Source of the DNA: Erysipelothrix larvae
Lineage (GTDB): Bacteria > Bacillota_I > Bacilli_A > Erysipelotrichales > Erysipelotrichaceae
NCBI RefSeq assembly: GCF_001545095.1
Contig: NZ_CP013213.1
Location: forward strand, 1,800,001-1,832,000
Direction: 5' to 3'
DNA length: 32,000 nucleotides
This document shows positions 1,515 to 29,373 of this stretch, piece after piece (position 1 is the first letter of the stretch; every line of letters begins with the position of its first letter). Under the pieces are notes generated by a model. That model made no database searches. It saw only the letters and a program-made list of their open reading frames with translations, and was not told the origin of the DNA. The translations under genes and the position numbers were made by a program.

Positions 1515-1525
1515 ATTTTTTCTCC

Positions 1526-1993: not shown

Positions 1994-2001
1994 TTTTACC
2001 C

Positions 2002-6757: not shown

Positions 6758-6921
6758 TGCGCACCACTTTCTAATGTGAACCAAGATTCGGGTTCTCTTT
6801 TTAATATGTTTTGTTTTAGTGTTTTATGGTTTTGTCTGTTTCGTGACTAATCGTCATTTATACTTACGCATCAATCACCTTTGTGATATGATATGTCTAA
6901 TTTATAAAAAGGAGATTATGT

Positions 6922-9608: not shown

Positions 9609-9634
9609 AAAACACTCCTTAAGGGAGTGTTTTG
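9609..9634. terminator. bidirectional terminator shared by the convergent LPXTG and cupin genes
   Basis: aacactcc ttaag ggagtgtt forms the hairpin, flanked by an A-run on one side and a T-run on the other. It overlaps the last codons of the cupin gene. Confidence 0.6.
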
Positions 9635-10098
9635 TATGCTAAGCGTTTAATCACGGATTCATGGTGTGGATAGTCTTCAAGGAGCATATCCTGTGTAAAG
9701 AGTTCAAATGCTGTATAGTCAAACCCTGGGGATACCATACAACTTACCAATGCATAATCATGATCAACCGATGATCCAAAGATTGTGCCTTTAGGAACCA
9801 CAAACTGTAGTGTTTCTCCATTTTCAATGTCTTTACCCAACCGTATTTCGTCATAGGTGCCATCAGGATAAATACAGTGAACACTTAAAGGTGCACCATC
9901 ATGATAGTACCAGGTTTCATCCGCATCCAGTCGATGAAAGTGTGAGGGTGAATCGGGTGTGAGTAAAAATAAGATGTTTGTATAATAAGCCCGTCCATTC
10001 TCAAAAGTTTCATTCGAACGGCTTGTTTCCTTATAGTATCCCCCTTCTGTATGGGGTTGTAATTCAAGTGTTTGTATCCATGTATCAATTGTTTTCAT
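9619..10098 (-). CDS. DUF985-type cupin domain protein
   Basis: The sequence from MKTIDTWIQTLELQPHTEGGYYKETS onward matches the DUF985 cupin pattern. The ATG at 10098 is preceded by GGAGGAAACA. The longer track ORF has no ribosome binding site. Confidence 0.75.
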   Translation of the reverse strand: MKTIDTWIQTLELQPHTEGGYYKETSRSNETFENGRAYYTNILFLLTPDSPSHFHRLDADETWYYHDGAPLSVHCIYPDGTYDEIRLGKDIENGETLQFVVPKGTIFGSSVDHDYALVSCMVSPGFDYTAFELFTQDMLLEDYPHHESVIKRLAYKTLP

Positions 10099-10135: not shown

Positions 10136-11485
10136 TTATGACTGGTGTGTCTTGAGTTCATGAAAGAAATCGTAAATTCGACCAATATCCGAACCAACAA
10201 GATAACTGCTGACCGTGACTTTAGGTTGTTCTACCTTATAAGGAAAGTCACAGGTAGATATAATCCCCATGCACTGATGACGCCAGTAGAAATCCAGAAA
10301 CCCATTCATCTCAGGTGCACGGTATGTAACATCTCCTTCATAAACATGATAAGTGTTTAATGGAAAATTTGTGCCAAGGTGTGCCTTGAGTGCATAGGCA
10401 TGATCACGACTGATATCGCTATAGATCATGACATTTAATGAGTGCGGTTGGTCTAGTGACGGTTGAATTGAATCAATGTTAAAGATTAAGTTTGCGAATA
10501 CATGTTCGTAGTCTTCAGACATTTTGGATAGGATTGCTTCAATGCGCTCTTTATGCATTTCAAACTTCTTACGATTAATCCGTGAGTAGTTTTTTACATA
10601 GTAAAGCACGGAATGTAAGTTAACATTGTTGACGGAATAAATAACATCACGCATGTATAAGATATGACATAGAATGGTAGAGACTTGCCCATGCTTTGTG
10701 TCATCAAAGACATATCCCATATCTTGAAGTGCATCCATGAGCTCTTCAAAATGATCTTCAATACGTGCATGCATTTTATCAAGTGCCTTAATGTATCGAA
10801 TGATTATTTCTTGTGACTCTTCTTCAAGTGTCAACACTGTTTCACAATCATTCAAGCGATATCCTTGCCTATAACGCATTGCAGAGGATTCCTCAAGGCT
10901 TTTTAAGAAGTAACGAAACTTAGAGCTTATCGAAAAGTATGGTTCAACCTTAGGGCTATAAACAATGTTTATCTTAGGCAGCATGAAGTTGCGTTGGAAA
11001 CTATCATAGAATGAAGCAATAAAGAATCGTACTTTATCTTCTTCACCAATAATCTCATAACTTAAACGCTTATCATTAAGCTTCACTTCATAGTGTCTTA
11101 AGATATCGTCAAGATCACACATCAACTTACGCGTTGATTGTGGACTCTTATTGATTTCATTTGCATAGAAATCAATAGGCATGTTTGGCCTTTCAATAAT
11201 CAGTCGTAATAGTCTTGTTCTTGGTTGACACGCAATAATGTTTTCATAGATAAATTGAATATTCCCAACAGAGGTATGACTGGATACAATGTTAGAATGA
11301 CTAAAGTCTAATTCAATTAAATCATTGTAGTTATCAATTAAATAATAGATATCGTTATATACTGTTCGTTCCACACACTGATTCACTGCAGCAATCTCTG
11401 CAATTGATATCACACGATCGTTTTTAATGAGTAAATCTAAAATATTCGCAAGACGATATACTTGCTTCTTGTACTTCAAAAGCAT
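10136..11485 (-). CDS. Mga-like / HTH-domain transcriptional regulator (full-length copy)
   Basis: 449 aa from the ATG at 11485, with GGGAGGAACATATT upstream. The N-terminal HTH reads YRLANILDLLIKNDRVISIAEIAAVNQCVERTVYNDIYYL. Its size and layout resemble stand-alone Mga/AtxA-type regulators. The family assignment is by eye only. Confidence 0.6.
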   Translation of the reverse strand: MLLKYKKQVYRLANILDLLIKNDRVISIAEIAAVNQCVERTVYNDIYYLIDNYNDLIELDFSHSNIVSSHTSVGNIQFIYENIIACQPRTRLLRLIIERPNMPIDFYANEINKSPQSTRKLMCDLDDILRHYEVKLNDKRLSYEIIGEEDKVRFFIASFYDSFQRNFMLPKINIVYSPKVEPYFSISSKFRYFLKSLEESSAMRYRQGYRLNDCETVLTLEEESQEIIIRYIKALDKMHARIEDHFEELMDALQDMGYVFDDTKHGQVSTILCHILYMRDVIYSVNNVNLHSVLYYVKNYSRINRKKFEMHKERIEAILSKMSEDYEHVFANLIFNIDSIQPSLDQPHSLNVMIYSDISRDHAYALKAHLGTNFPLNTYHVYEGDVTYRAPEMNGFLDFYWRHQCMGIISTCDFPYKVEQPKVTVSSYLVGSDIGRIYDFFHELKTHQS

Positions 11486-11650
11486 AATATGTTCCTCCCT
11501 TTTAAGCGTCTCATTGTATAAGCATTCGACCCACATCAAATACTTACCCAAATGACCACCCACAGGATATATGCTAACATACGAGCTAAAAGAGACCTAG
11601 CAATCCATGTGCTTTCACATGGTGGTTCAAGTACCTATCACCTATTTCAC
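11006..11650. repeat. 645-bp direct repeat, copy A (5' half of the regulator gene plus 165 bp upstream)
   Basis: It aligns base for base with 15707-16351 at a constant offset of 4701 bp. I saw no indels and roughly ten substitutions by eye. Confidence 0.9.
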
Positions 11651-11794
11651 GTGGCTTTCATAATTGATATAAACAGTATGTTTCATCAAGTTAGTTTTCA
11701 GGGAATAATTTAAAAGTGCCAGGAACTGTAACAGTAAATATCATCGTTTTTAATTGATCTCTCAAAACTAGAATACTTTCGTTATTAACATTAT

Positions 11795-12829
11795 CTAAAG
11801 AAGAGAAACCGATGCTTTTATATACTTAAATGCTTCTGAGTCGATTTTCTTCACTCTATTTAAATTTGCATATATTGTTCCATGAGGAATCAGCTCTTCT
11901 ACATCAATTGTATCAATATAACTCAAATCCAAATCATGTCGAATCATCGATGCTATATAGAGCACTTTACTCACATGAGGAATTGCTTTTATTCTTGAAT
12001 AACTACCAAATATATGAGTGCCAATTTTTTTTATTCCACCTTTAAGTTCCTTATAAAATTGTGATTTATCATAATGAGCGCCATCACTTAGTATTGAAAT
12101 ACATGCTTCAATTGTATCATTTAAACAATCCTGAAAATCTATATCCAGCCTCCGATATTTAATTTGTATTTTTGAATATTCGTAATACGCTCGTTTTACA
12201 ACTTCAAAATCTTCAATATGATCAAACAATACCGCAACATCATGCATTTGCTTAATTATTTCTAGATCTTTTCCACTATTATATAACACTCCAATTGTAT
12301 TTGGAGCAAAAGCTGACAGTTTATCAGCAATCATATAGTCTACAATTGGAACTTTTACGTATGAAGGTGGATCTTCTGTGATATGCAATGAATTTTTGAT
12401 TTCAACTAACTTGGTGTCAATAAAATCGTCATCTTCAAAAACAACATCTAAAATAATATTTGATGGTGTATTACTTATTATTGAGGTATATTCAAATTTA
12501 AAATGTCTCTTCTCAATTCCGTTATTCCTTCTTCTATGATGCTCAACACAACTCTCAAAAGGAAAAAGTTTGCCTGCCTCTGTTATAAACTCATCAATAT
12601 CTGTATCAGCATTTACCATGATATCAATATCTGTTGAGAATCTTCTAGGATTATCAAGAAAAAGTAGCAGACAGGTTCCACCTTTGAATACAAAGTCGAG
12701 ATTTACATCAACGAGCGATTGTAATAAACCAAATGCAAAAAGCACCCTTTCGAAAATTGCTTTATCGCCTCCATATTCTTTTACCATATTTTCCAAGTGT
12801 TCCTGTGAATAGTTACTTTTTGATATCAT
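11795..12829 (-). CDS. abiEii: AbiEii/AbiGii-family nucleotidyltransferase toxin (type IV TA)
   Basis: FVFKGGTCLLLFLDNPRRFSTDIDIMV matches the GG-x(n)-D-x-D pol-beta-type NTase motif of the DUF1814/AbiEii family. It lies directly downstream of an AbiEi-like gene. The first ATG is at 12829. The track ORF starts at a TTG at 12865, so the start is uncertain. Confidence 0.8.
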   Translation of the reverse strand: MISKSNYSQEHLENMVKEYGGDKAIFERVLFAFGLLQSLVDVNLDFVFKGGTCLLLFLDNPRRFSTDIDIMVNADTDIDEFITEAGKLFPFESCVEHHRRRNNGIEKRHFKFEYTSIISNTPSNIILDVVFEDDDFIDTKLVEIKNSLHITEDPPSYVKVPIVDYMIADKLSAFAPNTIGVLYNSGKDLEIIKQMHDVAVLFDHIEDFEVVKRAYYEYSKIQIKYRRLDIDFQDCLNDTIEACISILSDGAHYDKSQFYKELKGGIKKIGTHIFGSYSRIKAIPHVSKVLYIASMIRHDLDLSYIDTIDVEELIPHGTIYANLNRVKKIDSEAFKYIKASVSLL

Positions 12830-12836
12830 AATATTT

Positions 12837-13516
12837 CTACTTGTCCCTATGAATATGTTGATCAACTATGTTCTGCTTATTACGACGCAATGAATATCTA
12901 TTTAACGTCGCATAGTCAATAATGTAGCGCTCCATCATGGAGTCTACAATTTGTTGATACTCACTTTTATTTATAATCTCTTTGATATATTTATTAGCAA
13001 ATAAATCAACAATCAGTTTTTCAATAACTATTTTGTTACTGTCGTTCTTGTTACTAATGGTTTCACTAATAAGATTAAGGACAACAATTAAATTGTTAGT
13101 TAAAACTTGATTGAATGTTTTTACATCCGGTTTGAGTAAAACATTCCCTTCATTTTTTTCCTTAATACTTTCAAATATAAACTCTTCGTATCCTTTTTCA
13201 ACTTCTACAAAAATTACATTAGTCGTTAATTGATGATTTAGGAATTCATTTAGCATTCTTAGTTCCCATATTTGAAATTGGATTTCATCAAAATCAAATA
13301 GCACCTCATCTAGTATTTTTTTGCTTGCGTTGATAATTCATATTCAAATCGACGTTGATTGCTAGTGCTAGATTTTACATATTTATTACGTCCAATACGA
13401 GTAATTTCATTCTCTTTCACTAACTTATACAAGATCCAAGAAATACTGTTTTTCTTAATGTCACCAAATCCGTCAATATATCGTCGATTAATCTCTGTTC
13501 TACTAAAAGGTTCCAT
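12837..13516 (-). pseudogene. abiEi: AbiEi-like antitoxin split into 68-aa (wHTH) and 155-aa ORFs by a frame change at an A7 tract
   Basis: The N-terminal ORF has the AbiEi/DUF6088-like wHTH pattern (ISWILYKLVKENEITRIGRNKYV). It ends ...GCA AAA AAA TAC TAG at 13310-13324. The -1 frame reads through as AKKILDEVLFDFDE into the 155-aa ORF. Together they would make about 225 aa, which is the expected size range for AbiEi. Confidence 0.55.
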
Positions 13517-13552
13517 ATCAGTTAATTGACTTAAATAATATCTGAACTTTTT

Positions 13553-13596
13553 GATACTGCGTAATTTTCTTCACTTTTATCACCTAATTGCAGTAT
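13553..13596. promoter_or_regulatory. inverted repeat upstream of abiEi (possible autoregulatory operator)
   Basis: The arms are atactgcgtaatt and taattgcagtat (one indel), separated by about 18 nt. They lie 37-80 nt upstream of the abiEi start. Confidence 0.3.
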
Positions 13597-13911
13597 TGTA
13601 TTTGTTAATCTAAAAAAAACGGCAATTTTAATACATTTTTGCCGTTTAATTATGATAGAGGAAGTTACATAAATTTATCTACTAGAAACTCAAAGTACAT
13701 TTTTTGTGTTTGTATATTTGGTAGTCAATGACTACTTTGGATTGACAACAACTTCTTCGTAAAGCATTAATAGACCGTATACCGATTCCAATACACATTT
13801 GTGATATCACCTCTTTCACCTCCAAAAGCATTATCACACACTTCTGAAGTTATAAAAATAGTGGACCAGTTTTCAATTGAGAATTGGCCCACTTTTAGAT
13901 TAACAAATACA
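13597..13911 (-). mobile_element. 315-bp MITE-like derivative of the IS21-family element
   Basis: 13796-13911 is identical over 116 bp to the istA-proximal end of the intact IS (30820-30935). The opposite terminus, tgtatttgttaatctaaaa at 13597-13615, is a perfect 19-nt inverted repeat of that end. The interior has no transposase. Confidence 0.6.
13617..13647 (-). terminator. hairpin aaacggcaa/ttgccgttt followed by T8 on the minus strand
   Basis: 9-bp GC-containing stem with a 13-nt loop, and a T8 run when read on the minus strand. Confidence 0.5.
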
Positions 13912-14003
13912 TCTTGTACTTCAAAAGCATAATATGTTCCTCCCTTTTAAGCGTCTCATTGTATAAGCATTCGACCCACATCAAATACTTACCCAAATGA
14001 TCA
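13912..14003. repeat. third, 92-bp copy (B) of the regulator promoter/5' end, truncated at codon 7 by the IS21 terminus
   Basis: It matches 11467-11558 and 16168-16259. It shares the gatca variant with copy C. It abuts the IS terminus ...aacaaataca at 13911. Confidence 0.85.
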
Positions 14004-14290
14004 TTTCGTCAAGAATATATTCAAAGTATGATTGAATATCAAGATTGTTTAGCTTTGCAGTTTCTACGATGCTATAGTAGATTGAACTCATTTGTGCATC
14101 ATTCTTTGTGTTAGAGAATAAAAAGTTCTTTTGTCCAATTACAAATGGTTTGATTGCATGTCTGCTCGATTATCGTGAGTTCAAGACGACCATCCAAGAA
14201 ATAGTTTCTAAGATATATTTCGTTGTTGATTGTGTGAGTTATTGCGACACCCATCTATGCGACTACGCTTCCCTTTGGTTCTTAGCCAAT
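14002..14290 (-). pseudogene. IS66-family transposase C-terminal fragment (frameshifted, truncated)
   Basis: Hand translation gives ...NNEIYLRNYFLDGRLEL, then after a frameshift HAIKPFVIGQKNFLFSNTKNDAQMSSIYYSIVETAKLNNLDIQSYFEYILDEM. This matches the conserved LDDGRLEIDNN..ER.IRPFVIGRKNWLFS block of IS66 transposases. Confidence 0.6.
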
Positions 14291-14381
14291 TTGATTGGGG
14301 TAACTACTCCCATTATTTAATATGTATATTCAAAGTTCTCATATAATGGTATACTATATTAAAATAAAAAAGAGGTGTAAT

Positions 14382-15278
14382 ATGTCAAATATAAGTGTTT
14401 TTAACACAAGTGATGAGAATAACATTAGACAGCTAGAGAGTACTTCCTATTCACTTGAATCACATTTGCAAAAACTAATTGAAAGAAATATGAAATCATT
14501 CTTTTCAGTAGATTTTTTAGCAAGCGAATACTCTTTTCCTAGTGGTAGAATTGACAGTCTTGGAATTGACGAAAACAACTGTCCTGTTATATTTGAATAT
14601 AAACGAAGTATGAATGAGAACGTTATTAACCAAGGTCTTTTCTATTTAGAATGGTTACTTGATCATAAAGCTGATTTTAAACTTCTAGTATTGGATAAAT
14701 ACGGAGACAACAGAGCTAATGCAATAGAATGGAAGACACCAATTGTGTATTGTATTGCAAACAATTTCAACAAATATGATGTAAATGCAGTTAAAATTAT
14801 GCAAAGAAATATTTATTTGGTGGAGTATAATCTTTTTGAAAATGATCTGATTATATTTGATTTCCTAAACTTAGATTCTAAAGTCAAAGAAGTAGGCAAT
14901 GATTTAATAATTGATAAATCAAAAAAAATGCAGCGAGATATTAATGATAGAATGAACACACTGAATAGTAATTTAAAGCCAATCTTAGAAGATTTACGAT
15001 CCTTCATTAGTGAAATAGGTGACGATGTTTCTGAAGTAGTTTTACGTCAATATATTGCTTATAAAAAGATTGGTAACTTTGTTACGATTGATATGACAAA
15101 TGATAAAATTCAAATGTATCTGAAAGTTGACCCTTCTGAAATTGAACTTAAAAATAATATGAGAGATATGACTAAAATCGGACATTTTGGTACTGGAAAC
15201 TTAGAAATAATAATTACATCAATAGATGACTATTATAACTCGAAATACTATATTGAATTAGCATATAATCAAAACTAA
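14382..15278 (+). CDS. NucS/DUF91-like PD-(D/E)XK nuclease domain fused to a DUF5655-like C-terminal domain
   Basis: The nuclease core GRIDSLGIDENNCPVIFEYKR (D...E-x-K) is followed by a QGLFY (QxxxY) motif. The C-terminus has a GHFGTGNLEIII block typical of DUF5655. The ATG at 14382 is preceded by AAGAGGTG. Confidence 0.65.
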   Translation: MSNISVFNTSDENNIRQLESTSYSLESHLQKLIERNMKSFFSVDFLASEYSFPSGRIDSLGIDENNCPVIFEYKRSMNENVINQGLFYLEWLLDHKADFKLLVLDKYGDNRANAIEWKTPIVYCIANNFNKYDVNAVKIMQRNIYLVEYNLFENDLIIFDFLNLDSKVKEVGNDLIIDKSKKMQRDINDRMNTLNSNLKPILEDLRSFISEIGDDVSEVVLRQYIAYKKIGNFVTIDMTNDKIQMYLKVDPSEIELKNNMRDMTKIGHFGTGNLEIIITSIDDYYNSKYYIELAYNQN

Positions 15279-15391
15279 TTCAATGTATTTAGAATTACCA
15301 AAATGTTACAAACTCTAATTAGGTTTCTAGCTTTCAGGATGCAATTTATATAATTCTGATAAATAGGTTGTGGAAGCCAATTCCTAGAATC

Positions 15392-15670
15392 TTAAGTTAC
15401 GGTACTCACTAGAATTTCTAGTGAGTACTTTTTATTATTTCCAAACTTACCATAGTATTACAAATTAAGAGATCTCTTGTTCTAAAATTTTCAAAACTTC
15501 GATAACCGTAGGCAACCCGTTTTATCACTTTGTTTAAATTGTTTGTCCCTTCTAAGCGACCAATAGAGTATGGATACTTTAGTGCGTTTGAGACAGATAC
15601 TTCATATTCTTTTTACGTCTTAATTAATTTCTTCATCTGTTTCGATATGTTCTTAGGTGGATATATTTAG
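15392..15670 (-). pseudogene. ISL3-family transposase C-terminal fragment
   Basis: Hand translation gives ...SNALKYPYSIGRLEGTNNLNKVIKRVAYGYRSFENFRTRDLLI. This matches the ISL3 C-terminal consensus SNG.LEG.NN.IK.IKR.AYGYRNF.NFR.RIL. There is an in-frame stop upstream and no N-terminal part. Confidence 0.6.
15402..15433 (+). terminator. strong intrinsic terminator after the NucS-like gene
   Basis: gtactcactag aattt ctagtgagtac forms an 11-bp perfect stem followed by T5. Confidence 0.7.
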
Positions 15671-15706
15671 AATCTCTATGAGTGTGGTGATGTTGTCTTA
15701 TTACGG

Positions 15707-16351
15707 ATAGAATGAAGCAATAAAGAATCATACTTTATCTTCTTCACCAACAATCTCATAACTTAAACGCTTATCATTAAGCTTCATTTCATAGTGTCTT
15801 AAGATATCATCAAAATCACACATCAACTTACGCGTTGATTGTGGACTCTTATTGATTTCATTTGCATAGAAATCAATAGGCATGTTTGGCCTTTCAATAA
15901 TCAGTCGTAATAGCCTTGTTCTTGGTTGACACGCAATAATGTTTTCATAGATAAATTGAATATTCCCAACAGAGGTATGACTGGATACGATGTTAGAATG
16001 ACTAAAGTCTAATTCAATTAAATCATTGTAGTTATCAATTAAATAATAGATATCGTTATATACTGTTCGTTCCACACACTGATTCACTGCAGCAATCTCT
16101 GCAATTGATATCACACGATCGTTTTTAATGAGTAAATCTAAAATATTCGCAAGACGATATACTTGCTTCTTGTACTTCAAAAGCATAATATGTTCCTCCC
16201 TTTTAAGCGTCTCATTGTATAAGCATTCGACCCACATCAAATACTTACCCAAATGATCACCCGCAGGATATATGCTAACATACGAGCTAAAAGAGACCTA
16301 GCAATCCATGTGCTTTCACATGGTGGTTCAAGTACCTATAACCTATTTCAC
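15707..16351. repeat. 645-bp direct repeat, copy C
   Basis: Partner of 11006-11650 at an offset of 4701 bp. Confidence 0.9.
15728..16186 (-). pseudogene. truncated duplicate of the Mga-like regulator (HTH-containing N-terminal 152 aa only)
   Basis: It has the same ribosome binding site, ATG and N-terminal sequence as 10136-11485, with a few substitutions (for example CDLDD to CDFDD). The reading frame ends a few codons inside the repeat boundary at 15707. Confidence 0.8.
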
Positions 16352-16449
16352 ATTTCAATCATATTTCGTAAGTAATGTTAATCATTCCAGCAAGCATTAC
16401 AAACCATAGAAGTAAAGCAATGTCCATTCACTTAAAAAGTGTTATGGAA

Positions 16450-16510
16450 CAAAAAAGTCAAATTGACCTAACACTTTAACTAAGTATTTTGGATTAATTT
16501 GACTTTTTGC
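16450..16510 (-). terminator. possible terminator downstream of the 618-aa gene
   Basis: A 13-bp inverted repeat aaaaagtcaaatt/aatttgacttttt has a T-run on the minus strand. The loop of about 32 nt is unusually large. Confidence 0.35.
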
Positions 16511-16546
16511 TGTAAAACTTACTGGTATTAACTGACGTATAACAAT

Positions 16547-18403
16547 TTATTGACCTGGTAAGGGAATTATAATTCTCTCGGCAATTTCTTTTAAATGAAC
16601 ATATTTTTCAAAGGATTGAGTATTAAAAACCTGACCCAGATTCGTTAGTATACTAATTGCCTCCAATAATAAATTTGTCAGTTCATCTTCACTATACACA
16701 AAAGCTCTTTCCTCAATTGAATCAAACACAACACTTGATTCAACATTCTTATAATTAATTGATTTAAATAGTTTAGGATATAACAATTTTTCTTCTTCAA
16801 ATCTAAAGAGTTCTGTTTTGAAAACATCATAAAACGCACCACATAACCAACTCAACATATTTGGTAGCTCATTATTATGATAGTATTGACTATTCGAATT
16901 CATGATACGTAGAATTGTGTAGAAATCACCTTTATTAAATGTTCTATAGAAGTTTTTCAAATATGAGAAAAGATTTATTGCATAATCAAATTGCGTAGCA
17001 TTAAGACAATAATCGACTAGAAAGTTATTAAATAATGTTAGCTCAGCTACACCTACAAACTGGTCCCGAATAACAAGAAGATCTTCCGCATCAAATACGC
17101 AGTAAATAGAAATGTCGGAGAAGTTTTTGCTACTAAGATAGTAGTTACTTCTTAATTTTGAAATCAAATCTAAATGCGTATCAATTGATGACGATAAAAA
17201 CACACATCTTGCACGTAAACTTACTTGTTCTTTAGCCAAATTAACATTTTTACAAGTTAACTTATAGTACTCACAATTTTCTAAATCTTCGTCAAAGAAC
17301 ATAATCTTAACACATTCAGAAACTAATGTTTTGGTAGAATCGGGTAATACATCAAATACGGATGGATAAGACTGGAAAAATTGAACAAATTTAAACATCC
17401 TACTCTCACGCTTATAGTTTGCAATGACCATAAAACTTATTTCATTGGCATCCTTTTTATCAGAAAAAGATTTAATTGTTTCAGGTTGAAGTTTATTTCG
17501 TAGATACTCATCTTCAATTAACAGATTAGTGTACCTGCTCTTATCTTCTTCAAATAAGTAACATAAAGCAAAATAATTTGCCTCCCTATTAAGTTTGCAA
17601 TCATTATCATCAAGCACAAATGTAAATTTACACAAAGTCTTGAAAAGCTTGTCCTTAATTTTTTGAGTCATCCTTTTGAAGAATTTATCCTCAACAAATT
17701 CTCGAAAGCCTCTTGTATTTAAGCGCTTATAATATTCATTCGTCTCACTTACGAAAAAATTAATTACATCTTTCCCAAGTATAGGATCACGTAAGAACAC
17801 TATTTCAAAAGCCTTACGAATCAAATCTATTGCTGTTTCTTTTGTTATTTCCTTTAAAACAACATTTTCTTCTATAGAGTAGATTGGGTGTGCAGCATAA
17901 TTCCTACATTTTTTTAAGTACATAAGCTCTTCTTTTTCCACATTTGAGAGCAGTTCTGTTTTCTTTGCTATTTCATCAAGTAGAGTTCCTTCCCACTTAG
18001 AACTAGTAATGTTTTTTTTCCTTTCCTCGTCGATACAAAGTAAAATTTCTTTTGCATTATTTATTTTATTATCATTTTTGTTATCATTTTTGTTATCATT
18101 TTTGTCATCATTTTTGTCATCATTTTTGTCATCATTTTTGTCATCATTTTTGTCATCATTTTTGTCATCATTTTTATTATCATTTTTGTTAGCATTTTTG
18201 TTAGCATTTTTATTATCATCATAGACATCACTAAGTATAACAAGTTTTTGAAGCAAATCATAAATTAACGTTGTGTATAAGACTACTACAGTTGCCCTAT
18301 AATTTCCATTATTATAACATGACAATACTTCTTTTAACTTGTCCTTAGTATTCGCATTACTTACATTTTCTATTTCCAAATCAACTTTGAATACACTCAT
18401 CAT
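16547..18403 (-). CDS. large orphan protein with an N-terminal HEPN-like domain (RNxxxH), an internal (N/D)-K tetrapeptide repeat, and about 430 aa I cannot assign
   Basis: 618 aa. AGAGGGGGA lies 5 nt upstream of ATGATG. The helix LKEVLSCYNNGNYRATVVVLYTTLIYDLLQKL is followed downstream by LKKCRNYAAHP, which is the canonical HEPN R-N-x-x-x-H motif. I see no other motif. Confidence 0.6.
   Translation of the reverse strand: MMSVFKVDLEIENVSNANTKDKLKEVLSCYNNGNYRATVVVLYTTLIYDLLQKLVILSDVYDDNKNANKNANKNDNKNDDKNDDKNDDKNDDKNDDKNDDKNDNKNDNKNDNKINNAKEILLCIDEERKKNITSSKWEGTLLDEIAKKTELLSNVEKEELMYLKKCRNYAAHPIYSIEENVVLKEITKETAIDLIRKAFEIVFLRDPILGKDVINFFVSETNEYYKRLNTRGFREFVEDKFFKRMTQKIKDKLFKTLCKFTFVLDDNDCKLNREANYFALCYLFEEDKSRYTNLLIEDEYLRNKLQPETIKSFSDKKDANEISFMVIANYKRESRMFKFVQFFQSYPSVFDVLPDSTKTLVSECVKIMFFDEDLENCEYYKLTCKNVNLAKEQVSLRARCVFLSSSIDTHLDLISKLRSNYYLSSKNFSDISIYCVFDAEDLLVIRDQFVGVAELTLFNNFLVDYCLNATQFDYAINLFSYLKNFYRTFNKGDFYTILRIMNSNSQYYHNNELPNMLSWLCGAFYDVFKTELFRFEEEKLLYPKLFKSINYKNVESSVVFDSIEERAFVYSEDELTNLLLEAISILTNLGQVFNTQSFEKYVHLKEIAERIIIPLPGQ
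18071..18214. repeat. 12 tandem copies of a 12-bp unit (atcatttttgtY) inside the 618-aa ORF
   Basis: There are six perfect atcatttttgtc units, flanked by variants (gtt, att, agc). They encode NANK/NDNK/NDDK tetrapeptides. Confidence 0.9.
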
Positions 18404-18779
18404 ATCCCCCTCTATTACATTACTAAATAAATCTACTAATTCTAATCCAAAAAATAAAAATCAAAGCGAAGATAGATATTCAAAACCAACTCATGAATTT
18501 AGAATATACTGCATTATATATTCATCCAGATAAATGAAATCTAATCGTATATACTAACATTAACGGATTCATTAATCAAAACCCATATAATGTAGTTAAC
18601 TTTAATGCAGTAAAAGAATCTACTATAATCATATTCAATAATGTATTTATAATGTTATCATAACATTTCGTGAAATAGTTAACAATGATGGTTATTGGAA
18701 TATCGCGCAAAAAAGGAGTGGAGATTCAAAAAAATGGAATTATTTGCTATATTTTAAGGATTTTTTTGATATCGTCACA

Positions 18780-19375
18780 AAGTGTGTTTAATTAATGTGT
18801 TTCGTAAAGAAGTTTGATTTGATGATAAAGATTTGAACAAATAAGCATAACCATATCTATCATGTTTTGAACATTTCAAAATCCATAACTCTTTCTTATC
18901 AAAATCTTGAATTTGTTGTTCATTGATTTAATGTGTGCATGTGAGAGCTAATGCCCTACAGTTTTGATGAATGAGTCATAGTGCCTTTTATCTTTTTGTT
19001 TAGAATCACAAATGGAGGAATACAACAACAACTAGCCCATGATAACCATTTCTTTAATTTTGTTTCTACATTCTCAAAATCTGATTTAAACTGTGGCTTA
19101 AATGCTTTTTTGTAAGAAACTCCTTAAACAGTTTTGGATAATCAATTCGTATTGCATCCTTAGTTGATTGTTGTTTTTAGTTTACTTCTCTGGTTTTTAA
19201 TCTAGTGGGTATCCAAGACCTTTGATCTCAATCACTGGCTTCTAATATACAACTTCTCTACCTCTATACCTCCAAATGCATATTCCCACTTCTGATGTTA
19301 TATAAATATTGGACTCATTTCCAACGACAATACACTGCTAAAGTTTACCACATTTAATGTGCAACAAACATGACA
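18780..19375 (-). pseudogene. degenerate second IS21-family element end (istA 5' region with many stops, plus a diverged terminal repeat)
   Basis: 19262-19375 is a diverged homologue of the intact IS end: acctccaaatgcat...cacttctgatgttata.aaata.tggac...aacaaacatgaca compared with 30841-30935. The region upstream of it translates only in broken frames (for example VIEIKGLGYPLD*). Confidence 0.4.
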
Positions 19376-19378
19376 CAT

Positions 19379-19416
19379 AAAAAAACGGCAATTTTTGTTC
19401 GTTTTTGCCGTTTTTT
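19379..19416. terminator. bidirectional hairpin aaaacggcaa/ttgccgtttt with flanking A- and T-runs
   Basis: It has the same stem sequence as the hairpin at 13617-13647. It lies immediately outside the degenerate IS21-like terminus. Confidence 0.5.
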
Positions 19417-19672
19417 ATGAAAGTGACAGTTATCTCAAACTCGTTTTATTGAACTATATTTTCATTAATCTGACGATACTACAATTTCAAGTTTTATTTA
19501 AATTGTGATTTCGCTGTCATAGTGATTTTTGAATTAGTGTGCATTATTTTCTTATGTTAGTGTTAATGCTAAAGTTCTTGCTTTAATATTGCTGGTTCTA
19601 AGATATCAAACTAACAATTGAATCTGTTAGTATATTATTTCTTTTTTTTGTGTTTTGAATTCAATTTTGATT

Positions 19673-20111
19673 TTATGAACGCTGAGCATACATCTGAGAG
19701 AGAGAGATCCCAATGCCTTCCTTATAATTGAACCCAAGGAGCTGCATAGTCTTAAGGGTATCTTTATTGAGTAGTTGTATCAACATTGTTATCAACTGAT
19801 TTGTATCTTCAGTTTGAGGTGCAAAAAAGTTGAGAATTTTAATTAATTGCTCAAGAGTGTTATGTAGGTATTCAATATTCTCATCACTAATCACTACATT
19901 ATCTAATTGCTGTTTATAATCTCTTGCTATCGTAATTAGTTCTTCTTTATCTGTGAGTAAGTTATTAACTATTTCCTATATGTAAGGGATTGATCCTCAA
20001 GATTTTTTTCTGTTTTGCTGTCTCCATTTTTGTACTAACAAAACTAATAGTATTACTAGAAACAACATCAGCAAAAGTAATACCTAATTGAATTAATTGA
20101 TCATCCATCAT
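19673..20111 (-). pseudogene. small hypothetical gene in two frames (48-aa N-terminal ORF plus 73-aa ORF)
   Basis: A strong AGAGGAG ribosome binding site precedes ATGATG at 20111. Frame 1 stops at 19965. The second frame is open from 19975 to 19673 (EIVNNLLTDKEELITIARDY...). I recognise no family. Confidence 0.3.
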
Positions 20112-20906
20112 AAAATCTCCTCTTTTTAGTTGAGTTATAGCAAATAATCTTACCTTATGAAAGTTCAGTGATTAATTTTGGAATTAACCCAATAGTATCT
20201 TATAATTGATCTATTTAGAACATTATGAAAGTCACTGCGAAAAATATGAAAAAACGTATAACTACTGTTATTGGAATTAGAATGAAAGATTATGCATAAA
20301 CTCACGAATAACAACTTTCTTACCTTCTCGTAGAAGAATACTTCAAACCAAGGATAGCATATGTTGAGACACTCTTGAAGTGTTAATGCTTAAAATGATT
20401 GCTAACAAAGCAAGCATAGCTGTACCAACAGCATCTAACTTGAACTATTAGATTCAATTCATAAAAATACGAAATTTAATCAAACAACCCTTATCGGTGA
20501 AATTTTAACTTGTGTTGCAATTTATACAAATAATGGGCAAAGACGGATATGTGATAGATTTCTAAAGCTGTCAATATTAGCTCCTTTCATCACTTTATTT
20601 GAGGACTGCTCCCCTACTTATGTTGAGCATCCAAATCTTTTAGTATTATCATAATACATAGGTTAAAATTTATATCGCACACCAAACATAGAAGAACTAG
20701 AGGCATTGTCGTTAAAGCCACGAAAACAAAAGAGCTACTATTCAGAAAGGAGCTCGAAAACAGAAACTGAACTAGAAGAATAAAAATAGGATTAAGATAT
20801 ACTAAATGTAACTTGATAACATAATTTAATTGAGTTTATGATGGAAAATATAGCAATAATATGCCATAATCAATTTAACCATAAACTTTTTGAGTAGGAG
20901 AGAAAG

Positions 20907-23117
20907 ATGACAACACAAATTGACCTTAAGCTTGTGAATATAGGCCCACATAAAACTATAGACTTTAGTAAAACCCTAAATAATATGAGAATTTCGATAT
21001 ATGCAAGAAATGGTGCAGGAAAAACATTCATCAGCCGATGTTTCAATGTATTTGCAATGAAACTAGAGGACAGAAATGAATATTCAAAAATTCTACTTAG
21101 GTATGGACAACAATCTGGAAATTTCTCATTTAACATTGGAAGTAATAGCGCAAGCTTCCGTTTAAGCAATAATGGAATTGATAATTGTCAAAACCTTTTA
21201 GACCGCAAGTTCCATGTTTTTAACAATGATTATATTATTGAGAACTTCAGCGAAAAAGAGTTTATTCCTAATAGTAATATCGAAGGAATTGTGCTAGGAA
21301 AAGGAAATATTGATCTATCTTCTGAAAAGAGGATGCTCAACTCACTTTTAGATGAGGGAAATTCGCTTAGATCAAAAATAGAAGAAAATATAGTAGAGGC
21401 AAAATCAAATCTTAAAAAGTACAAAATTTCAAACTCTTTAACTAAGTGTAAGGATATAAATTACACTAATATAATTGAATACAAACCAACAGATGTAGAC
21501 TATAGTGTTGAGGTGGGAAAATATTCTGAACTTTCGAGTTTACCTGATGATATCCGTGACTTTAGATTAGATGATAGAATTTCTGATATTGGGATAGAAA
21601 TAAGTGACCTTAAAAATCTGTTGAAAACAAAGTATACTTTGAATAAATTTGAAGCTGATTTTAGGGAATATGTAAAAACAAATTTAAAGTTTATAGAGTT
21701 GGGACTTAAATTACATGAGGGTAACAATTGTCCATTTTGCAAACAGAATCTATCCGACAATGCCTTTCAATTAATTAATCAATATGTTCAATTTGTTAAC
21801 GATGAAGAAACAAAGGTTAACAAAATGTTAATAGCATATTTCGATAAGTTTGAAGAGATAAGAAGACATATTGATGAATATTATCGATATTTAGGAGAGT
21901 TCGAGGAGAGAATCAGATATTACAACCAATTTTTTGGGCCATTTGACTTAACAAGTATTGTTTCACTAAAAACTCATATTGATGAGTGGAAAGACTTAGC
22001 AACTATGATTTTGGAAAGAGTAAAGTCTAAGAAGCAAAATATCACTCTTGATTTTGACAGCACTGACATAACTAATGAGATTATAGATAAATTAGCTAAC
22101 AATATTAAGCAAATTAACATGAGCTTATCTGAATTTAACATAAAAAAGAATAACATAGCAAAACTAAAAACAGAGTATAGAAGATCAATTTGTGAAGGTT
22201 TATTCAATAAACTTCACTCTGAAAACAGGAAACTAATTGATAGAATAGTTGTTCTTCGCAAAAATACCTTTGACCTTAGAAGTTTAATTTTAGAAAAGGA
22301 AAACACGAATCAATCCAATAAAAAAGATTTAGTAGCAAATGACTTAGAAAAATACTTATTTCAATTTTTCAGAGATAAGTACGTTCTAAATAAAGATGAT
22401 TTTACTTTAACATTAAAAGAATATAATATTAATACAAGTTCAAATAAGGCCCTCAGTGAAGGAGAAAAGAGTATACTTGCATTTTGTTATTTTTTAGCAA
22501 GCATTCATGAGGTTGTCAGTGATACTGAAGAGTATAATAAAATAATTCTTGTAATAGATGACCCAGTATCAAGTATGGATATCCAATATACATATCAACT
22601 TGTTGCTTTGCTAAAGAACTATCAAAAAGATATTGAAGGGTTTCAATTGAAGTTTATAATGCTTACTCATAATTTAGAATTTTTTAATATTTTATCAAGA
22701 AACAATTTATCTAAACATAAGTTAATCTTGGAAGATGGATTGGATGAATATAAAAATGAGATTTTAATGCCTTATGATTATCATTTATATGACGTGTGGT
22801 CAGTTGCAAAAGGGAAAAAGCTACCAAGTCATACCACTCCCAATTCTATTAGACATATTATTGAAACAATTGCACAATTTTGCGGTTATGGTGATAAAAG
22901 CTCAAGTTTGTATAATATGATTTGTGAGAAAGAACAACTAAACCAAAATTTAGAAATTTATACATTTATGCAGGACTTATCTCATGGGAACTTTAGATTA
23001 GATACTGCGTACACTTCGGATGTATTAAAAGAAGGAGCTGTCGCAGTTATAAATTACGTCACAAAAGAATTCCCAAAGCAACTGATTCAATTTAGTAATG
23101 AAAGTAATCAAAGCTAA
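20907..23117 (+). CDS. RloC/PrrC-like AAA_13 ABC-type ATPase with a coiled-coil/CxxC zinc hook and a C-terminal anticodon-nuclease-like motif
   Basis: ATPase motifs: Walker A ARNGAGKT, signature LSEGEKS, Walker B/D-loop LVIDDPVSSMD and H-loop LTHN. A long K/E-rich insert between them carries NCPFCKQ. The C-terminus has NSIRHIIETIAQF (R-x3-E) followed 40 residues later by LSHGNF. An AGGAGAG ribosome binding site lies upstream. Confidence 0.7.
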   Translation: MTTQIDLKLVNIGPHKTIDFSKTLNNMRISIYARNGAGKTFISRCFNVFAMKLEDRNEYSKILLRYGQQSGNFSFNIGSNSASFRLSNNGIDNCQNLLDRKFHVFNNDYIIENFSEKEFIPNSNIEGIVLGKGNIDLSSEKRMLNSLLDEGNSLRSKIEENIVEAKSNLKKYKISNSLTKCKDINYTNIIEYKPTDVDYSVEVGKYSELSSLPDDIRDFRLDDRISDIGIEISDLKNLLKTKYTLNKFEADFREYVKTNLKFIELGLKLHEGNNCPFCKQNLSDNAFQLINQYVQFVNDEETKVNKMLIAYFDKFEEIRRHIDEYYRYLGEFEERIRYYNQFFGPFDLTSIVSLKTHIDEWKDLATMILERVKSKKQNITLDFDSTDITNEIIDKLANNIKQINMSLSEFNIKKNNIAKLKTEYRRSICEGLFNKLHSENRKLIDRIVVLRKNTFDLRSLILEKENTNQSNKKDLVANDLEKYLFQFFRDKYVLNKDDFTLTLKEYNINTSSNKALSEGEKSILAFCYFLASIHEVVSDTEEYNKIILVIDDPVSSMDIQYTYQLVALLKNYQKDIEGFQLKFIMLTHNLEFFNILSRNNLSKHKLILEDGLDEYKNEILMPYDYHLYDVWSVAKGKKLPSHTTPNSIRHIIETIAQFCGYGDKSSSLYNMICEKEQLNQNLEIYTFMQDLSHGNFRLDTAYTSDVLKEGAVAVINYVTKEFPKQLIQFSNESNQS

Positions 23118-23629
23118 TAGAATTACTTTTATATCAACTTAGAAGTTTTAATCCCTTTATCTACTTGTATTGACACATATTGTTAATTAGTGTTCCGTAA
23201 TATATTCTGTCTTTTCTAAATATTCAAATCATTTAAATACTTCTATTCTTTTGATAATGAACGTAGATGCTCACATTGTGCCTTCTCCAAATTATTGATG
23301 TATTAATGGAAACGCACCAAAAATACTTATTCCTAATACTTCCGGTTTTCTTTTATTTGAGATTTACTCCTATTTTAATTTTGATTTTCTTCTCGATTCA
23401 ATGCCTTATATGCACTTTCATTTCCAGCAAGTAGATGATATACCAAGCATGAGTTGTACCCATAAATGCTAAACGATAATTACGCCTATCTATTAGTAGA
23501 TTTGATCACTCAAGCCCTATCTATGCATTATGTTCGCGATATAACTTTCATGAAGTTCAAGATAAAGCAACGCAAGGTACTTATTTTGTTGACTTTTTGT
23601 GCTACATTATATTGAACTCGCTAATCTTG

Positions 23630-24516
23630 TAAATGTTAATATAAAAAATAGTTTTTTTATCATATAAGAATGTAGGAAAACCAACATTTTTATATGAGAT
23701 TTTTGTCGCTTTCCTCCTTTTCGATACTTCCCATTTTTTCCTTCATTCGGTATGACGGACCCTTAATATTTATAATATGTGAGTGATGAAGGAGTCGGTC
23801 AAGTAGTGCGTTTGTAAGCGTTAGATTCTGGAATATATCACCCCATTTACTAAAAGGTGTATTTGTCGTTATGATCGTACTATGCTTCTCATATCGCTTA
23901 GCTGTCAATTGAAAAAACAGGTTCGCTGCCTCAGTATCCATTTCTAAATAGCCCAGTTCATCAATGATTAACACCTTATATTTTACAAAGAATTTCAATC
24001 GCGTTTCGAGTCTGTTCTCATAGTTGGCCTTTTTCAGTTGATTAATTAGTTCTTCAAAAGTTATGAAGTATGTTGAGAAGTGCTTAATAGCAGATGCAAT
24101 TCCAATTGCAGTTGCTAGGTGTGTCTTACCTGTTCCTGGTGTCCCAACAAAAATAATATTCTCCTTGTTTTCAATAAATCGAAGCGAAACTAGATCTATA
24201 ATTTGCTTTTTACTAACACTAGGCTGAAAATCAAATTCATAGTCTCTTTCAGTTTTAAGGTATGGAAAATTACTGACCTTCACCCAAGAGGTAATTGCAC
24301 CTTCGTCTCTGAATGACATCTCTTTTTCGCTGAGTTCATAGAGTGCTTGTGCGAATGTCATATCATTTCGATTGACTCTATCGGAATATTCATCGAAATT
24401 CTCAATCATTTTGGTGAGTCCTAAATCTTCTAAGTTGTTAATCAATTTTGCAGTCACTTAATTTGTTCCTTTCGTAAGCCTTTAAATCTTGCTATACTTC
24501 TGTAATCAATGTGCAT
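23630..24516 (-). mobile_element. truncated IS21-family element retaining only istB and about 60 nt of the istA 3' end; boundaries approximate
   Basis: An intact istB-like ORF starts with a GTG that overlaps a TGA (GTGA) closing a 20-codon ORF remnant (MHIDYRSIARFKGLRKEQIK). No istA body lies upstream. Confidence 0.5.
23690..24457 (-). CDS. istB: IstB-like ATP-binding transposition helper (orphan)
   Basis: 255 aa with Walker A GTPGTGKTHLA and Walker B VLIIDELGY. It shows overall similarity to the IstB at 28616-29362. Confidence 0.85.
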   Translation of the reverse strand: MTAKLINNLEDLGLTKMIENFDEYSDRVNRNDMTFAQALYELSEKEMSFRDEGAITSWVKVSNFPYLKTERDYEFDFQPSVSKKQIIDLVSLRFIENKENIIFVGTPGTGKTHLATAIGIASAIKHFSTYFITFEELINQLKKANYENRLETRLKFFVKYKVLIIDELGYLEMDTEAANLFFQLTAKRYEKHSTIITTNTPFSKWGDIFQNLTLTNALLDRLLHHSHIINIKGPSYRMKEKMGSIEKEESDKNLI

Positions 24517-24951
24517 AATTTCACCTATTATTACAGCAAAAAAATGCTGCACTTGGCATTAGTTATGCACAACATAAATTCTAACCTATATACTATGATA
24601 ATATTAAAAATTTTAATTCTCAAGATAAGGCGACGCAAGGTGCTCATTTTGACTTCTGTTTGCAAATTTGACACTATTTTTATATTAGAATAAAAAAAAT
24701 AGCAATTGAAGGCTATGTAAAATGCTATGAATAGTGTAAAATAATTTTATATTAGTCTTTTTGATAGTATATGGTATAAAGAAATTATTGCTTACACACT
24801 AGCATTTTTTCTTTAAGAAGAGGAGTATATTCACGAGAAGCTTGATAGCTTGGGAATTATAAACTATAATTTGAAGGTTGTGTAATGATGACATAAAGAT
24901 AAATGAATATTTTAAGTCACAACGTATGTAAAGAAACGATGAGAGGTATAT

Positions 24952-26421
24952 ATGAAGAAACAAAAAGGATCAAATCCAAAAAGAGATCTTACAATGAAAC
25001 GTTTTGGATGGGTAGTCTTGGGAATTCAAGCGTTATTTTCTGCGTTATCGATTTACGCAATTATCGATGCGAATGTTTTACCAACACGTTATCTATTAAT
25101 TGCAATGGGCGTGATCGTACTGCTCCTTATCTTGATGGGTCTATGGGTCATGAAGACCAAAGGCTTTGCATCACGAATTATCAGTTTAATATTATCGATT
25201 GTGATTTTACTGGGAACCATCTACGTCATGAATGCCAGTGGTTTTATTGGTGGTGTAACTGGAGGGAGTACAAATACACACGTTATTAACGTACTTGTAT
25301 TGGATGAAAGTCCTGCGAAAAATATTTCCGATGTCAAAGATGAGCAGTTTGGTGTAAATACACAACAAGAACAAGAAACTGCAAACCGTGCAGTAACCCT
25401 TATTAAAGAGAAAGACAACATTGATATCTCAATTAAGGCATATTCTGATTATGAAACCATGATTGATGATCTCTATGATGGAACGGTCAAAGTGATCATT
25501 ATGAGTGAAGGAAACATGTCATTAATGGATGAAATTGATGAAAACTTCACAAGTAACGTACGTATTATTGCGTCTTACAAGTATGAAGAAGAAGTCGTAC
25601 AAAGAGACACACGTCCTGACGTCTTAAAGGAAACCTACAGTATCTTCCTCAGTGGAATTGATACCTATGGACCAGTTTCCACAGTATCACGTTCAGATGT
25701 GAATATGATTATTACCGTGAACCCAAAAACAAATCAAATTTTACTCACAAGTATTCCACGTGATTACTTCGTAACCCTAGCATCACGAGGTGCGAAGGAT
25801 AAACTCACCCATGCGGGACTTTATGGTGTTGAAGAATCCATGAATACACTTGAAAACTTATTGGACATCGATATTGATTTCTATGTTCGTGTTAATTTCT
25901 CATCTGTAACCGATATTGTGGATGCTTTGGGTGGCGTTGAAGTTTATACTAAATATAACTTTATTACGTTACCTGAACACGGTGGATATCGATTTACTGC
26001 AGGGAATAACTCAGTAAATGGCGCACAAGCATTGTCATTTGTGCGTGAACGTTACAACTTGCCAAATGGTGATAATGATCGTGTTTACCACCAACAACAA
26101 CTTGTACAAGGGATCTTAAATAAAGCAATGTCACCATCCATTATTACACGCTTTAGTTCAGTCCTTAACTCAGTGTCAGGTTCACTTCAAATGAGTTTCT
26201 CAGAAAGTGAACTCACATCCATTATTCGTCATCAAGTGGATTCGATGGAAAGCTGGGATATCCAACAAGTACAATTAACCGGTACGGGATCATCGGGTGT
26301 TACATACAGTATGCCAGGACGCAATTTATACATTATGATTCCAAACCAAGATTCAGTAAACCGTGCATCATCATTAATCCATCAAATGGAAAAGGGTGAA
26401 GTAGTTCAAGTTACAGATTAA
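24952..26421 (+). CDS. LCP (LytR-CpsA-Psr) family cell-wall glycopolymer ligase
   Basis: It has an N-terminal transmembrane anchor. The LCP core reads LSGIDTYGPVSTVSRSDVNMIITVNPKTNQILLTSIPRDYFV, followed by FVRERYNLPNGDNDRVYHQQ. Confidence 0.9.
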   Translation: MKKQKGSNPKRDLTMKRFGWVVLGIQALFSALSIYAIIDANVLPTRYLLIAMGVIVLLLILMGLWVMKTKGFASRIISLILSIVILLGTIYVMNASGFIGGVTGGSTNTHVINVLVLDESPAKNISDVKDEQFGVNTQQEQETANRAVTLIKEKDNIDISIKAYSDYETMIDDLYDGTVKVIIMSEGNMSLMDEIDENFTSNVRIIASYKYEEEVVQRDTRPDVLKETYSIFLSGIDTYGPVSTVSRSDVNMIITVNPKTNQILLTSIPRDYFVTLASRGAKDKLTHAGLYGVEESMNTLENLLDIDIDFYVRVNFSSVTDIVDALGGVEVYTKYNFITLPEHGGYRFTAGNNSVNGAQALSFVRERYNLPNGDNDRVYHQQQLVQGILNKAMSPSIITRFSSVLNSVSGSLQMSFSESELTSIIRHQVDSMESWDIQQVQLTGTGSSGVTYSMPGRNLYIMIPNQDSVNRASSLIHQMEKGEVVQVTD

Positions 26422-28412: not shown

Positions 28413-28615
28413 CATATATTCTCCTATAACTTTAACTAAGTAGTACAAAATAATGTATGTGTATTCCTGATACTACCAAACCAGGAAGAATGTTTATCAT
28501 AAAAAAGAGTGCTGTTACTATTAGATTCAACTGTGACTAATCAAAATTAGACAAGTGTATTTGTCAACTGAATAATGGTCCAAATCTCAATTGAAAACTG
28601 GTCCACTACCGTTTG

Positions 28616-29362: not shown

Positions 29363-29373
29363 TAATTTTTCTC

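Follow-up and report, generated by a model that had tools for sequence, protein, structure and literature searches.

A small defence island of Erysipelothrix larvae that contains nested copies of the 5' end of a neighbouring regulator gene

The CR3 defence island of Streptococcus thermophilus (PMC11514479), an example of the chromosomal defence islands of Firmicutes that are rich in transposase genes, consists of several abortive-infection-type systems that lie side by side amid transposase genes, and a dedicated integrase is absent. The same holds for a block of about 13 kb (11651-24934) in Erysipelothrix larvae, located between the gene of an Mga-like regulator and a gene of the LCP (LytR-CpsA-Psr) family, where the systems are interleaved with the remains of insertion sequences (ISs). 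Two further described systems are relevant for the cargo of this block. The protein PD-T7-3 has been renamed DARNA and is an abortive-infection HEPN RNase, of which the E. coli prototype cuts the anticodon loops of tRNAs upon single-stranded DNA (ssDNA) presented by the ssDNA-binding protein (SSB) of the phage (bioRxiv 10.64898/2026.02.22.705581). The RloC protein of Geobacillus kaustophilus is an anticodon nuclease that excises the wobble nucleotide and has a proven catalytic triad, R692/E696/H737 (PMC2610378). All coordinates given below are positions in the window, i.e. the whole 32,000-nt stretch of E. larvae DNA that was analysed, and the modules were scored with PADLOC, Pfam and NCBIfam profiles.

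Four distinct PADLOC families (AbiE, PDC-S18, PD-T7-3 and PDC-S06) are represented inside 11.3 kb of the block. The original prediction had named four immunity-type modules, and all four were recovered with the PADLOC profiles, supplemented by Pfam where a family matched:

11795-12829, minus strand: AbiEii nucleotidyltransferase toxin (PADLOC PDLC02299, E=1.6e-110; Pfam PF08843, E=9.6e-18)
12837-13516, minus strand: AbiEi antitoxin/regulator, a split gene (PADLOC AbiEi matches, with a frameshift)
14382-15278, plus strand: PDC-S18 candidate defence protein with a NucS_C-like PD-(D/E)xK nuclease domain and DUF5655 (PADLOC PDLC04946)
16547-18403, minus strand: homologue of PD-T7-3/DARNA ('Dandelion') of 618 amino acids (aa) (PADLOC PD-T7-3, E=3.1e-65; PDB 9wxf, E=9.2e-22)
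20907-23117, plus strand: PDC-S06, an RloC-like ATPase of the ATP-binding cassette (ABC) type with a predicted anticodon nuclease, 736 aa (PADLOC PDLC04898, E=1.6e-175)

With several unrelated defence systems within a few kb the block is, judged on its sequence, a genuine phage-defence island of a known kind, and a fairly ordinary one, in which two of the systems have described prototypes and the other two (PDC-S18 and PDC-S06) are candidates according to PADLOC. The contents overlap with those described for S. thermophilus, for which both AbiE and PDC-S06 have been listed (PMC11514479). The S. thermophilus islands have flanks that are conserved across many strains (PMC11514479), whereas the conservation of the E. 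larvae flanks is doubtful. In addition, the E. larvae island differs by its small size (13 kb) and by the presence of nested copies of the 5' end of the neighbouring regulator gene. These copies are the one feature of special note in the island; content and layout are otherwise as expected from the literature on defence islands. The locus adds a small, well-delimited defence island for a little-studied genus and extends the newly characterised DARNA/PD-T7-3 family of tRNA nucleases to the Erysipelotrichaceae. The nested copies constitute a rare trace, at the level of the sequence, of island building without an integrase, and the value of the locus would lie here if the trace is borne out by conspecific genomes.

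The intact regulator gene, its repeat copies and the IS remnants that lie next to these copies are as follows:

10136-11485, minus strand: coding sequence of the intact Mga/AcpB/MafR-like regulator, with 165 nt upstream to 11650 (Pfam Mga helix-turn-helix, 1.6e-6; NCBIfam AcpB/EbpR/MafR, 1.4e-22, below cut-off)
11006-11650, minus strand: regulator repeat copy 1, 645 nt, part of the intact gene
13796-13911, minus strand: solo left end of an IS21 element, 116 nt, with the inverted repeat and the first 15 codons of istA (100% identical to 30820-30935)
13912-14003, minus strand: regulator repeat copy 2, 92 nt, ribosome-binding site (RBS) and promoter region, +19 to -73 relative to the ATG
14005-14073, minus strand: C-terminal scrap of an IS66 transposase gene, 23 codons (Pfam PF13817 DDE_Tnp_IS66_C, E=9.7e-4, below the gathering score, six-frame scan)
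15475-15642, minus strand: C-terminal remnant of an ISL3 transposase gene (Pfam PF01610, E=2.1e-13, profile positions 184-239/240)
15707-16351, minus strand: regulator repeat copy 3, 645 nt, +480 (codon 160) to -165, 98.45% identical to copy 1

The two 645-nt direct repeats (copies 1 and 3) bracket a segment of 4,056 bp that carries AbiE and PDC-S18, with copy 2 inside. More specifically, AbiE lies between copies 1 and 2 and PDC-S18 between copies 2 and 3, while the DARNA-like gene and the remainder of the cargo lie beyond copy 3. The regulator gene has GGGAGG as its RBS, and copy 2 is 100% identical to the corresponding part of copy 3 (16168-16259) and, over 89 nt, to that of copy 1 (11467-11555). 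Copies 3 and 1 differ by 10 mismatches, 9 of which are transitions; one of the mismatches makes a stop codon and leaves a stub of 152 aa. The translation of copy 3 thus contains the nonsense change and three amino-acid replacements, and the only copy that is joined to the remainder of the gene is the intact one.

The junctions of the copies are equally telling. At position +19 of the regulator, copy 2 is joined exactly to the outer terminus of the IS21 left end, and at position -73 exactly to the IS66 scrap. Copy 2 is bounded by these two elements and therefore represents at least one further regulator copy that was hit by two ISs. The start of copy 3 lies in the middle of the ISL3 transposase gene, the remnant of which is cut off there on its 5' side, and for that reason the join is illegitimate and not an IS end. 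Whichever mechanism applies, at least three regulator copies were once present and the older ones were cut by IS elements. If a circular fragment had been integrated by a single crossover, repeats of equal extent (645 nt) around 4,056 bp would be the expected product; they are also compatible with a homologous crossover accompanied by an illegitimate join, and with local duplication and subsequent decay. Taken together, the three nested copies support stepwise recombination at the locus and not the arrival of one integrative element.

The reading that we favour, and regard as probable although with considerable room for doubt, is that of a chromosomal defence island that was most likely built up in steps, through recombination at the start of the regulator gene, and later trimmed in its older layers by IS elements. 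Repeats and junctions are directly observed, and from these we infer the order of the events and the recombination mechanism. Successive recombination would have been confined to a single site, namely the 5' end of the Mga-like regulator gene with its promoter, and would have taken the form of either a Campbell-type single crossover, with a circular fragment as partner, or a homologous crossover together with an illegitimate join. Insertions of IS21, IS66 and ISL3 and deletions adjacent to these elements would then have trimmed the older layers, and the four modules would act independently of each other. The original prediction had advocated assembly by IS-mediated and homologous recombination instead of an integrative element. 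That proposal stands as regards the defence island itself, the lack of an integrase and the IS-bounded and homologous or illegitimate junctions, with the regulator copies, which it had not noted, in its favour. The core nature of the flanks was not supported, and the difference in base composition showed in bulk GC but not at third codon positions (GC3).

Several points weigh against stepwise growth at the regulator. The stepwise acquisition is read from scars in one genome and not from strain-to-strain variation, and the closer affinity of copy 2 to copy 3 than to copy 1 depends on a single informative site. The repeats could stem from local tandem duplication and subsequent decay instead of successive imports. 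GC3 does not separate the island from the flanking genes of the phosphotransferase system (PTS), which leaves a foreign origin unproven by composition. Moreover, at least two modules may be inactive, considering the frameshift in abiEi and the low-complexity insert of 53 aa in the HEPN domain of the DARNA-like protein, and both PDC-S18 and PDC-S06 are PADLOC candidates.

According to the tandem-duplication alternative, the regulator copies would have arisen by unequal crossing-over and have decayed in place, with the defence genes inserted separately or already there, so that the repeats would say nothing about the arrival of the cargo. The divergence of 1.55% that consists nearly completely of transitions, together with the nonsense change in copy 3, is what a decaying duplicate would display, and the same extent of both 645-nt copies is in line with such an origin. 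However, equal extents are given equally well by a single crossover with a circular fragment. Furthermore, a tandem duplication should have doubled the 4.7-kb unit in its entirety, but the rest of the unit occurs only once, and the 92-nt copy with its two different IS ends needs extra events anyway. We consider local duplication rather unlikely. A single arrival, for instance by an IS21-mediated cointegrate, of an integrative or plasmid-derived element that later lost its integrase or replication genes appears quite improbable. It would account for the evenly low GC content of the four defence genes (0.28-0.31), for the IS remnants at or near both ends, and for the rearranged state of the DNA beside the LCP gene relative to the nearest relative. 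Nevertheless, a single import fails to explain three copies of the 5' end of a chromosomal gene within the block, and the two IS21 pieces stem from different elements (39% amino-acid identity between their IstB proteins). The marks of such an element were likewise not found: there is no integrase or recombinase in any open reading frame (ORF) or in six-frame Pfam scans of the ORF-free stretches, as had been claimed before, no gene for conjugation, replication or phage functions in the block, no tRNA gene or Rfam family according to tRNA and Rfam scans, and no repeat of at least 10 nt common to both ends of the island. Megablast of the island against 72,556 plasmids and 50,697 phages gave no match, and tblastn of PDC-S06 against the plasmids gave only hits of approximately 24% identity, to AAA ATPases.

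Even less credit, in our opinion, is due to the notion that the clustering has no functional meaning and that the block is a dump of pseudogenes and ISs in which defence-like genes survived by chance; this we hold to be highly improbable. The frameshifted abiEi, a decayed gene at 19682-20108, at least five IS scraps and approximately 2.5 kb without ORFs could be viewed as such debris, but four long ORFs (298-736 aa) are open with their catalytic motifs kept, and four matches to defence or candidate families in 13 kb, with PADLOC values of 1e-65 to 1e-175, are unlike random debris. An extension of the favoured stepwise reading is more speculative, and we give it little chance. In it, the 5' end and promoter of the regulator would serve as a recurrent landing pad for homologous recombination that takes up defence cassettes serially, with no need for a site-specific recombinase. 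With every cassette a new and intact copy of the regulator would arrive, by which the older copies, trimmed by ISs, would be displaced outward. The succession of acquisitions would then be written into the locus in the manner of tree rings, and the unit of 4.7 kb enclosed by the 645-nt repeats could loop out or undergo amplification.

The base composition provides a mixed picture. The GC content of the island is 0.298, compared to 0.392 for 6.0-10.1 kb, 0.342 for 1-6 kb and 0.322 for 26.4-32 kb, and the AT-richness that had been predicted relative to 6.9-11.5 kb was thus visible in bulk GC. It was not visible in GC3, which is no lower in the defence genes (0.21-0.25) than in the PTS genes (0.19-0.23). 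Because GC3 is alike, it is chiefly the first and second codon positions that account for the bulk difference, and the AT-richness is a weak sign of foreign origin.

The gene content and the catalytic motifs of the modules are likewise directly observed, and from these we infer all biochemical activities described below. As in other AbiE systems, abiEi is located directly upstream of the AbiEii nucleotidyltransferase gene, on the same strand and at a distance of 7 nt. AbiE would be a toxin-antitoxin pair of type IV, with the GTP-nucleotidyltransferase AbiEii restrained by AbiEi. By analogy with MenT-type nucleotidyltransferases, AbiEii is possibly directed at tRNA. The nucleotidyltransferase motif KGGT...DIDI of AbiEii (DUF1814) is seen in the translation. 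Unlike a typical abiEi, the gene is interrupted here by a homopolymer frameshift. The N-terminal ORF (13310-13516, 68 aa) matches the PADLOC AbiEi model at positions 17-78 (3e-10) and the C-terminal ORF (12837-13304, 155 aa) at positions 85-231 (7.8e-48), i.e. both domains are adjacent and their frames differ. The cause is an A7 run, around 13305-13325, that is 1 nt short: GCAAAAAAATAC in abiEi is translated to AKKY followed by a stop, whereas A8 in place of A7 yields ...AKKILDEV... and restores a single ORF. The missing base could reflect an error in sequencing the homopolymer, phase variation of the tract, or true inactivation or decay of the gene; the ORF of the AbiEii toxin stays open despite the split. 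A terminator-like hairpin of 35 nt (AAAAAAACGGCAA...TTGCCGTTT) occurs twice in the island with 89% identity, upstream of abiEi (13613-13647) and in an ORF-free stretch (19379-19413).

The PDC-S18 protein matches PDLC04946 over its full length (E=1.3e-111) and in addition Pfam DUF5655 (6.5e-7) and NucS_C (5.7e-5). It retains the nuclease motif D...E-x-K (D...EYK) in its translation and would act as a predicted PD-(D/E)xK nuclease; a literature search revealed no published functional test of the family. Between its gene and the ISL3 remnant, a hairpin with a strong 13-bp stem is followed by a T-run (15401-15429).

The 618-aa protein encoded beyond copy 3 has no Pfam match. Its R167-NYAA-H172 (RX4H) aligns with the HEPN motif of PDB 9wxf, a 12-chain entry named 'Dandelion', and of 9wx2, 'Dandelion-hepn'. 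Like the E. coli DARNA, in which the corresponding residues are R117/H122, it combines an N-terminal HEPN domain with RX4H and an alpha-helical C-terminal region, and the latter gives a weak sequence match to 9wxf (residues 389-513). In DARNA, the helical C-terminal domain is the part that binds ssDNA, and the protein assembles into a dodecamer. The protein is larger than DARNA (618 versus about 456-460 aa). It carries an insert of approximately 53 aa, (KNDD)n, between the residues that correspond to chain positions 69 and 72 of 9wxf in the alignment. The insert is encoded by a 12-nt tandem repeat, present 13 times with 94% matches at 18064-18219 and in frame inside the HEPN domain, the copy number of which could change through slippage. 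By analogy with the prototype, which is triggered by SSB-presented ssDNA, the homologue would act as a HEPN RNase that cuts the anticodon loops of tRNAs and aborts the infection.

The PDC-S06 protein matches Pfam AAA_13 (2.2e-38) and, weakly, SMC_N and SbcC_Walker_B, and the PADLOC PrrC profile covers residues 470-724 in its C-terminal half (2.1e-19). The motifs of an ABC ATPase are present (Walker A GAGKT at 36-40, signature LSEGE at 516, Walker B VIDDP at 549 and H-loop HNLEF at 588), and the insert between them contains a CXXC zinc-hook motif (CPFC, 275-278). RloC shares this architecture, with ABC motifs that are split by a long CXXC zinc-hook insert. In addition, the C-terminal triad R649/E653/H693 is spaced like that of the G. 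kaustophilus protein, with a distance between Glu and His of 40 versus 41 residues (PMC2610378). No PDB relative of PDC-S06 was found by sequence. RloC is usually not linked to an intact type I restriction-modification (R-M) locus, and the same is true here: hsdM, hsdS and hsdR are found nowhere in the window. PrrC in the strict sense is encoded within an hsd locus, by which it is silenced; the PDC-S06 protein is not embedded in such a locus and for that reason resembles RloC rather than PrrC. PADLOC files it under the candidate PDC-S06 and not under RloC, and the likeness derives from the motifs and their spacing. In contrast to RloC loci, a decayed gene of a kind that elsewhere heads a type I R-M operon sits 0.8 kb upstream. 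In the RloC-like protein, the ATPase part resembles Rad50 and is joined to the predicted anticodon nuclease; the protein would shut off translation once DNA is damaged or restriction has failed. The earlier guess that the HEPN-like and RloC-like modules are RNA- or tRNA-directed effectors was a good one, in view of the DARNA literature for the former and of the RloC motifs and triad spacing for the latter. Of the four modules, as many as three may be directed at tRNA, namely the two nucleases (DARNA-like and RloC-like) and possibly, by the analogy with MenT, AbiEii.

The remaining IS pieces and the decayed gene are distributed over the right half of the island and the DNA beyond:

18858-19013, minus strand: second, weak C-terminal remnant of an ISL3 transposase gene (Pfam PF01610, E=8.4e-4, below cut-off)
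19682-20108, minus strand: decayed gene with two frameshifts (blastn 66.8%; tblastn 51-54% in two frames)
23690-24457, minus strand: orphan istB of a second IS21-family element (Pfam IstB_IS21, 5.5e-79; NCBIfam, 5e-81)
28556-30935, minus strand: complete IS21 with istA, istB and inverted repeats, outside the island in a polysaccharide locus; source family of 13796-13911

The assignment of the solo IS21 end agrees with tblastn, by which residues 1-15 of IstA are encoded at 13796-13911. The complete element carries a 5-bp target duplication (ACAAG) and lies 4 kb away, from which it follows that this IS21 family has transposed locally. Its IstB protein is the one to which the orphan IstB is 39% identical, and a six-frame profile scan and tblastn detected no istA remnant beside the orphan gene (24458-24951). 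A composite IS21 transposon that carries the LCP gene was considered and ruled out, since the two IS21-family pieces are different elements. The IS66 scrap is weak by score, but the typical motif is present. Thus, of the IS fragments that had been predicted, IS66 and ISL3 were found, albeit smaller and fewer than claimed, and the IS21 pieces inside the interval number two instead of at least three. Of the long ORF-free stretches that had been described, the one at 18404-20906 (about 2.5 kb) was confirmed, and it holds the weak ISL3 tail and the decayed gene. The latter is homologous to a 161-aa protein, without an NCBIfam match, that heads a type I R-M operon, before hsdM, on the Enterococcus faecium plasmid NZ_CP096052, and the decayed gene is perhaps all that is left of a type I R-M system beside the RloC-like gene. 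An inverted repeat of 42 nt (18788-18829 and 31406-31447, 79% complementary) has one arm just downstream of the weak ISL3 tail; the arms may represent ISL3 ends that are separated by 12.6 kb, or may match by chance, given the AT-rich DNA. A scan for promoters and terminators was uninformative, with fewer promoter-like sites than in shuffled sequence.

The following genes flank the island, the first six on the side of the regulator and the others on the side of the LCP gene:

154-3921: fructose-type PTS genes and a PRD regulator
4095-5282: Fe-ADH
5990-6784: TauE
6922-7851: M19 dipeptidase
8282-9586: LPXTG surface protein, no Pfam domain
9619-10095: cupin (DUF985)
24952-26421, plus strand: LCP (LytR-CpsA-Psr), right edge of the island (Pfam 1.3e-41)
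27246-28448: GT4 glycosyltransferase
31486-31935: UDP-glucose dehydrogenase fragment, ORF of 149 aa

The original prediction had placed the island between core genes, and in this respect it was not borne out: the best full-length relatives of the regulator are only 35-36% identical, the nearest relative of the cupin is from Enterococcus (65% identical), and the context of the LCP gene differs from that in the window in every relative examined. More specifically, 1.84 billion representatives include only 55 relatives of the regulator at E<=1e-3, and no match was obtained in scans of the genome and metagenome collections or in a word-based homologue search. A match of 98% (P0242) is the 152-aa stub of copy 3 of the window itself. 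The Mga/AcpB-like regulator, which neighbours the gene of the LPXTG surface protein, is thus nearly an orphan. Exact-protein look-ups for the regulator, LCP, the dipeptidase, PDC-S06, IstB and the E. larvae LCP paralogue P0081 gave no match, a scan of genomes with the dipeptidase gave only a 38% match from Paenibacillus, and a scan of metagenomes with LCP gave only matches of approximately 30%. Neither these look-ups nor the scans of the genome and metagenome collections yielded a second genome with the regulator-to-LCP interval.

The nearest relative of the LCP protein (P0001, 98% identical) is encoded on Logan contig L002 (SRR6161627). Homology at the DNA level (L002 1771-3248 versus window 24935-26421) extends from approximately 17 nt before the ATG of the LCP gene to a few codons before its stop. 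Both flanks of the gene on this contig, which ends 1.8 kb upstream, are unrelated to the window, and the 421-aa neighbour of LCP encoded there has no NCBIfam match. It is as if the LCP gene alone had moved, or the locus had been rearranged at the exact gene borders, relative to L002. The other LCP relatives are all from Erysipelothrix or the Erysipelotrichaceae. The orthologue of E. rhusiopathiae (50%) resides amid housekeeping genes, and a relative of 57% follows a polysaccharide cluster, the GT4 of which is not orthologous to that of the window (21% identical). The right side of the window itself looks like an IS-disrupted, variable locus for cell-envelope polysaccharide.

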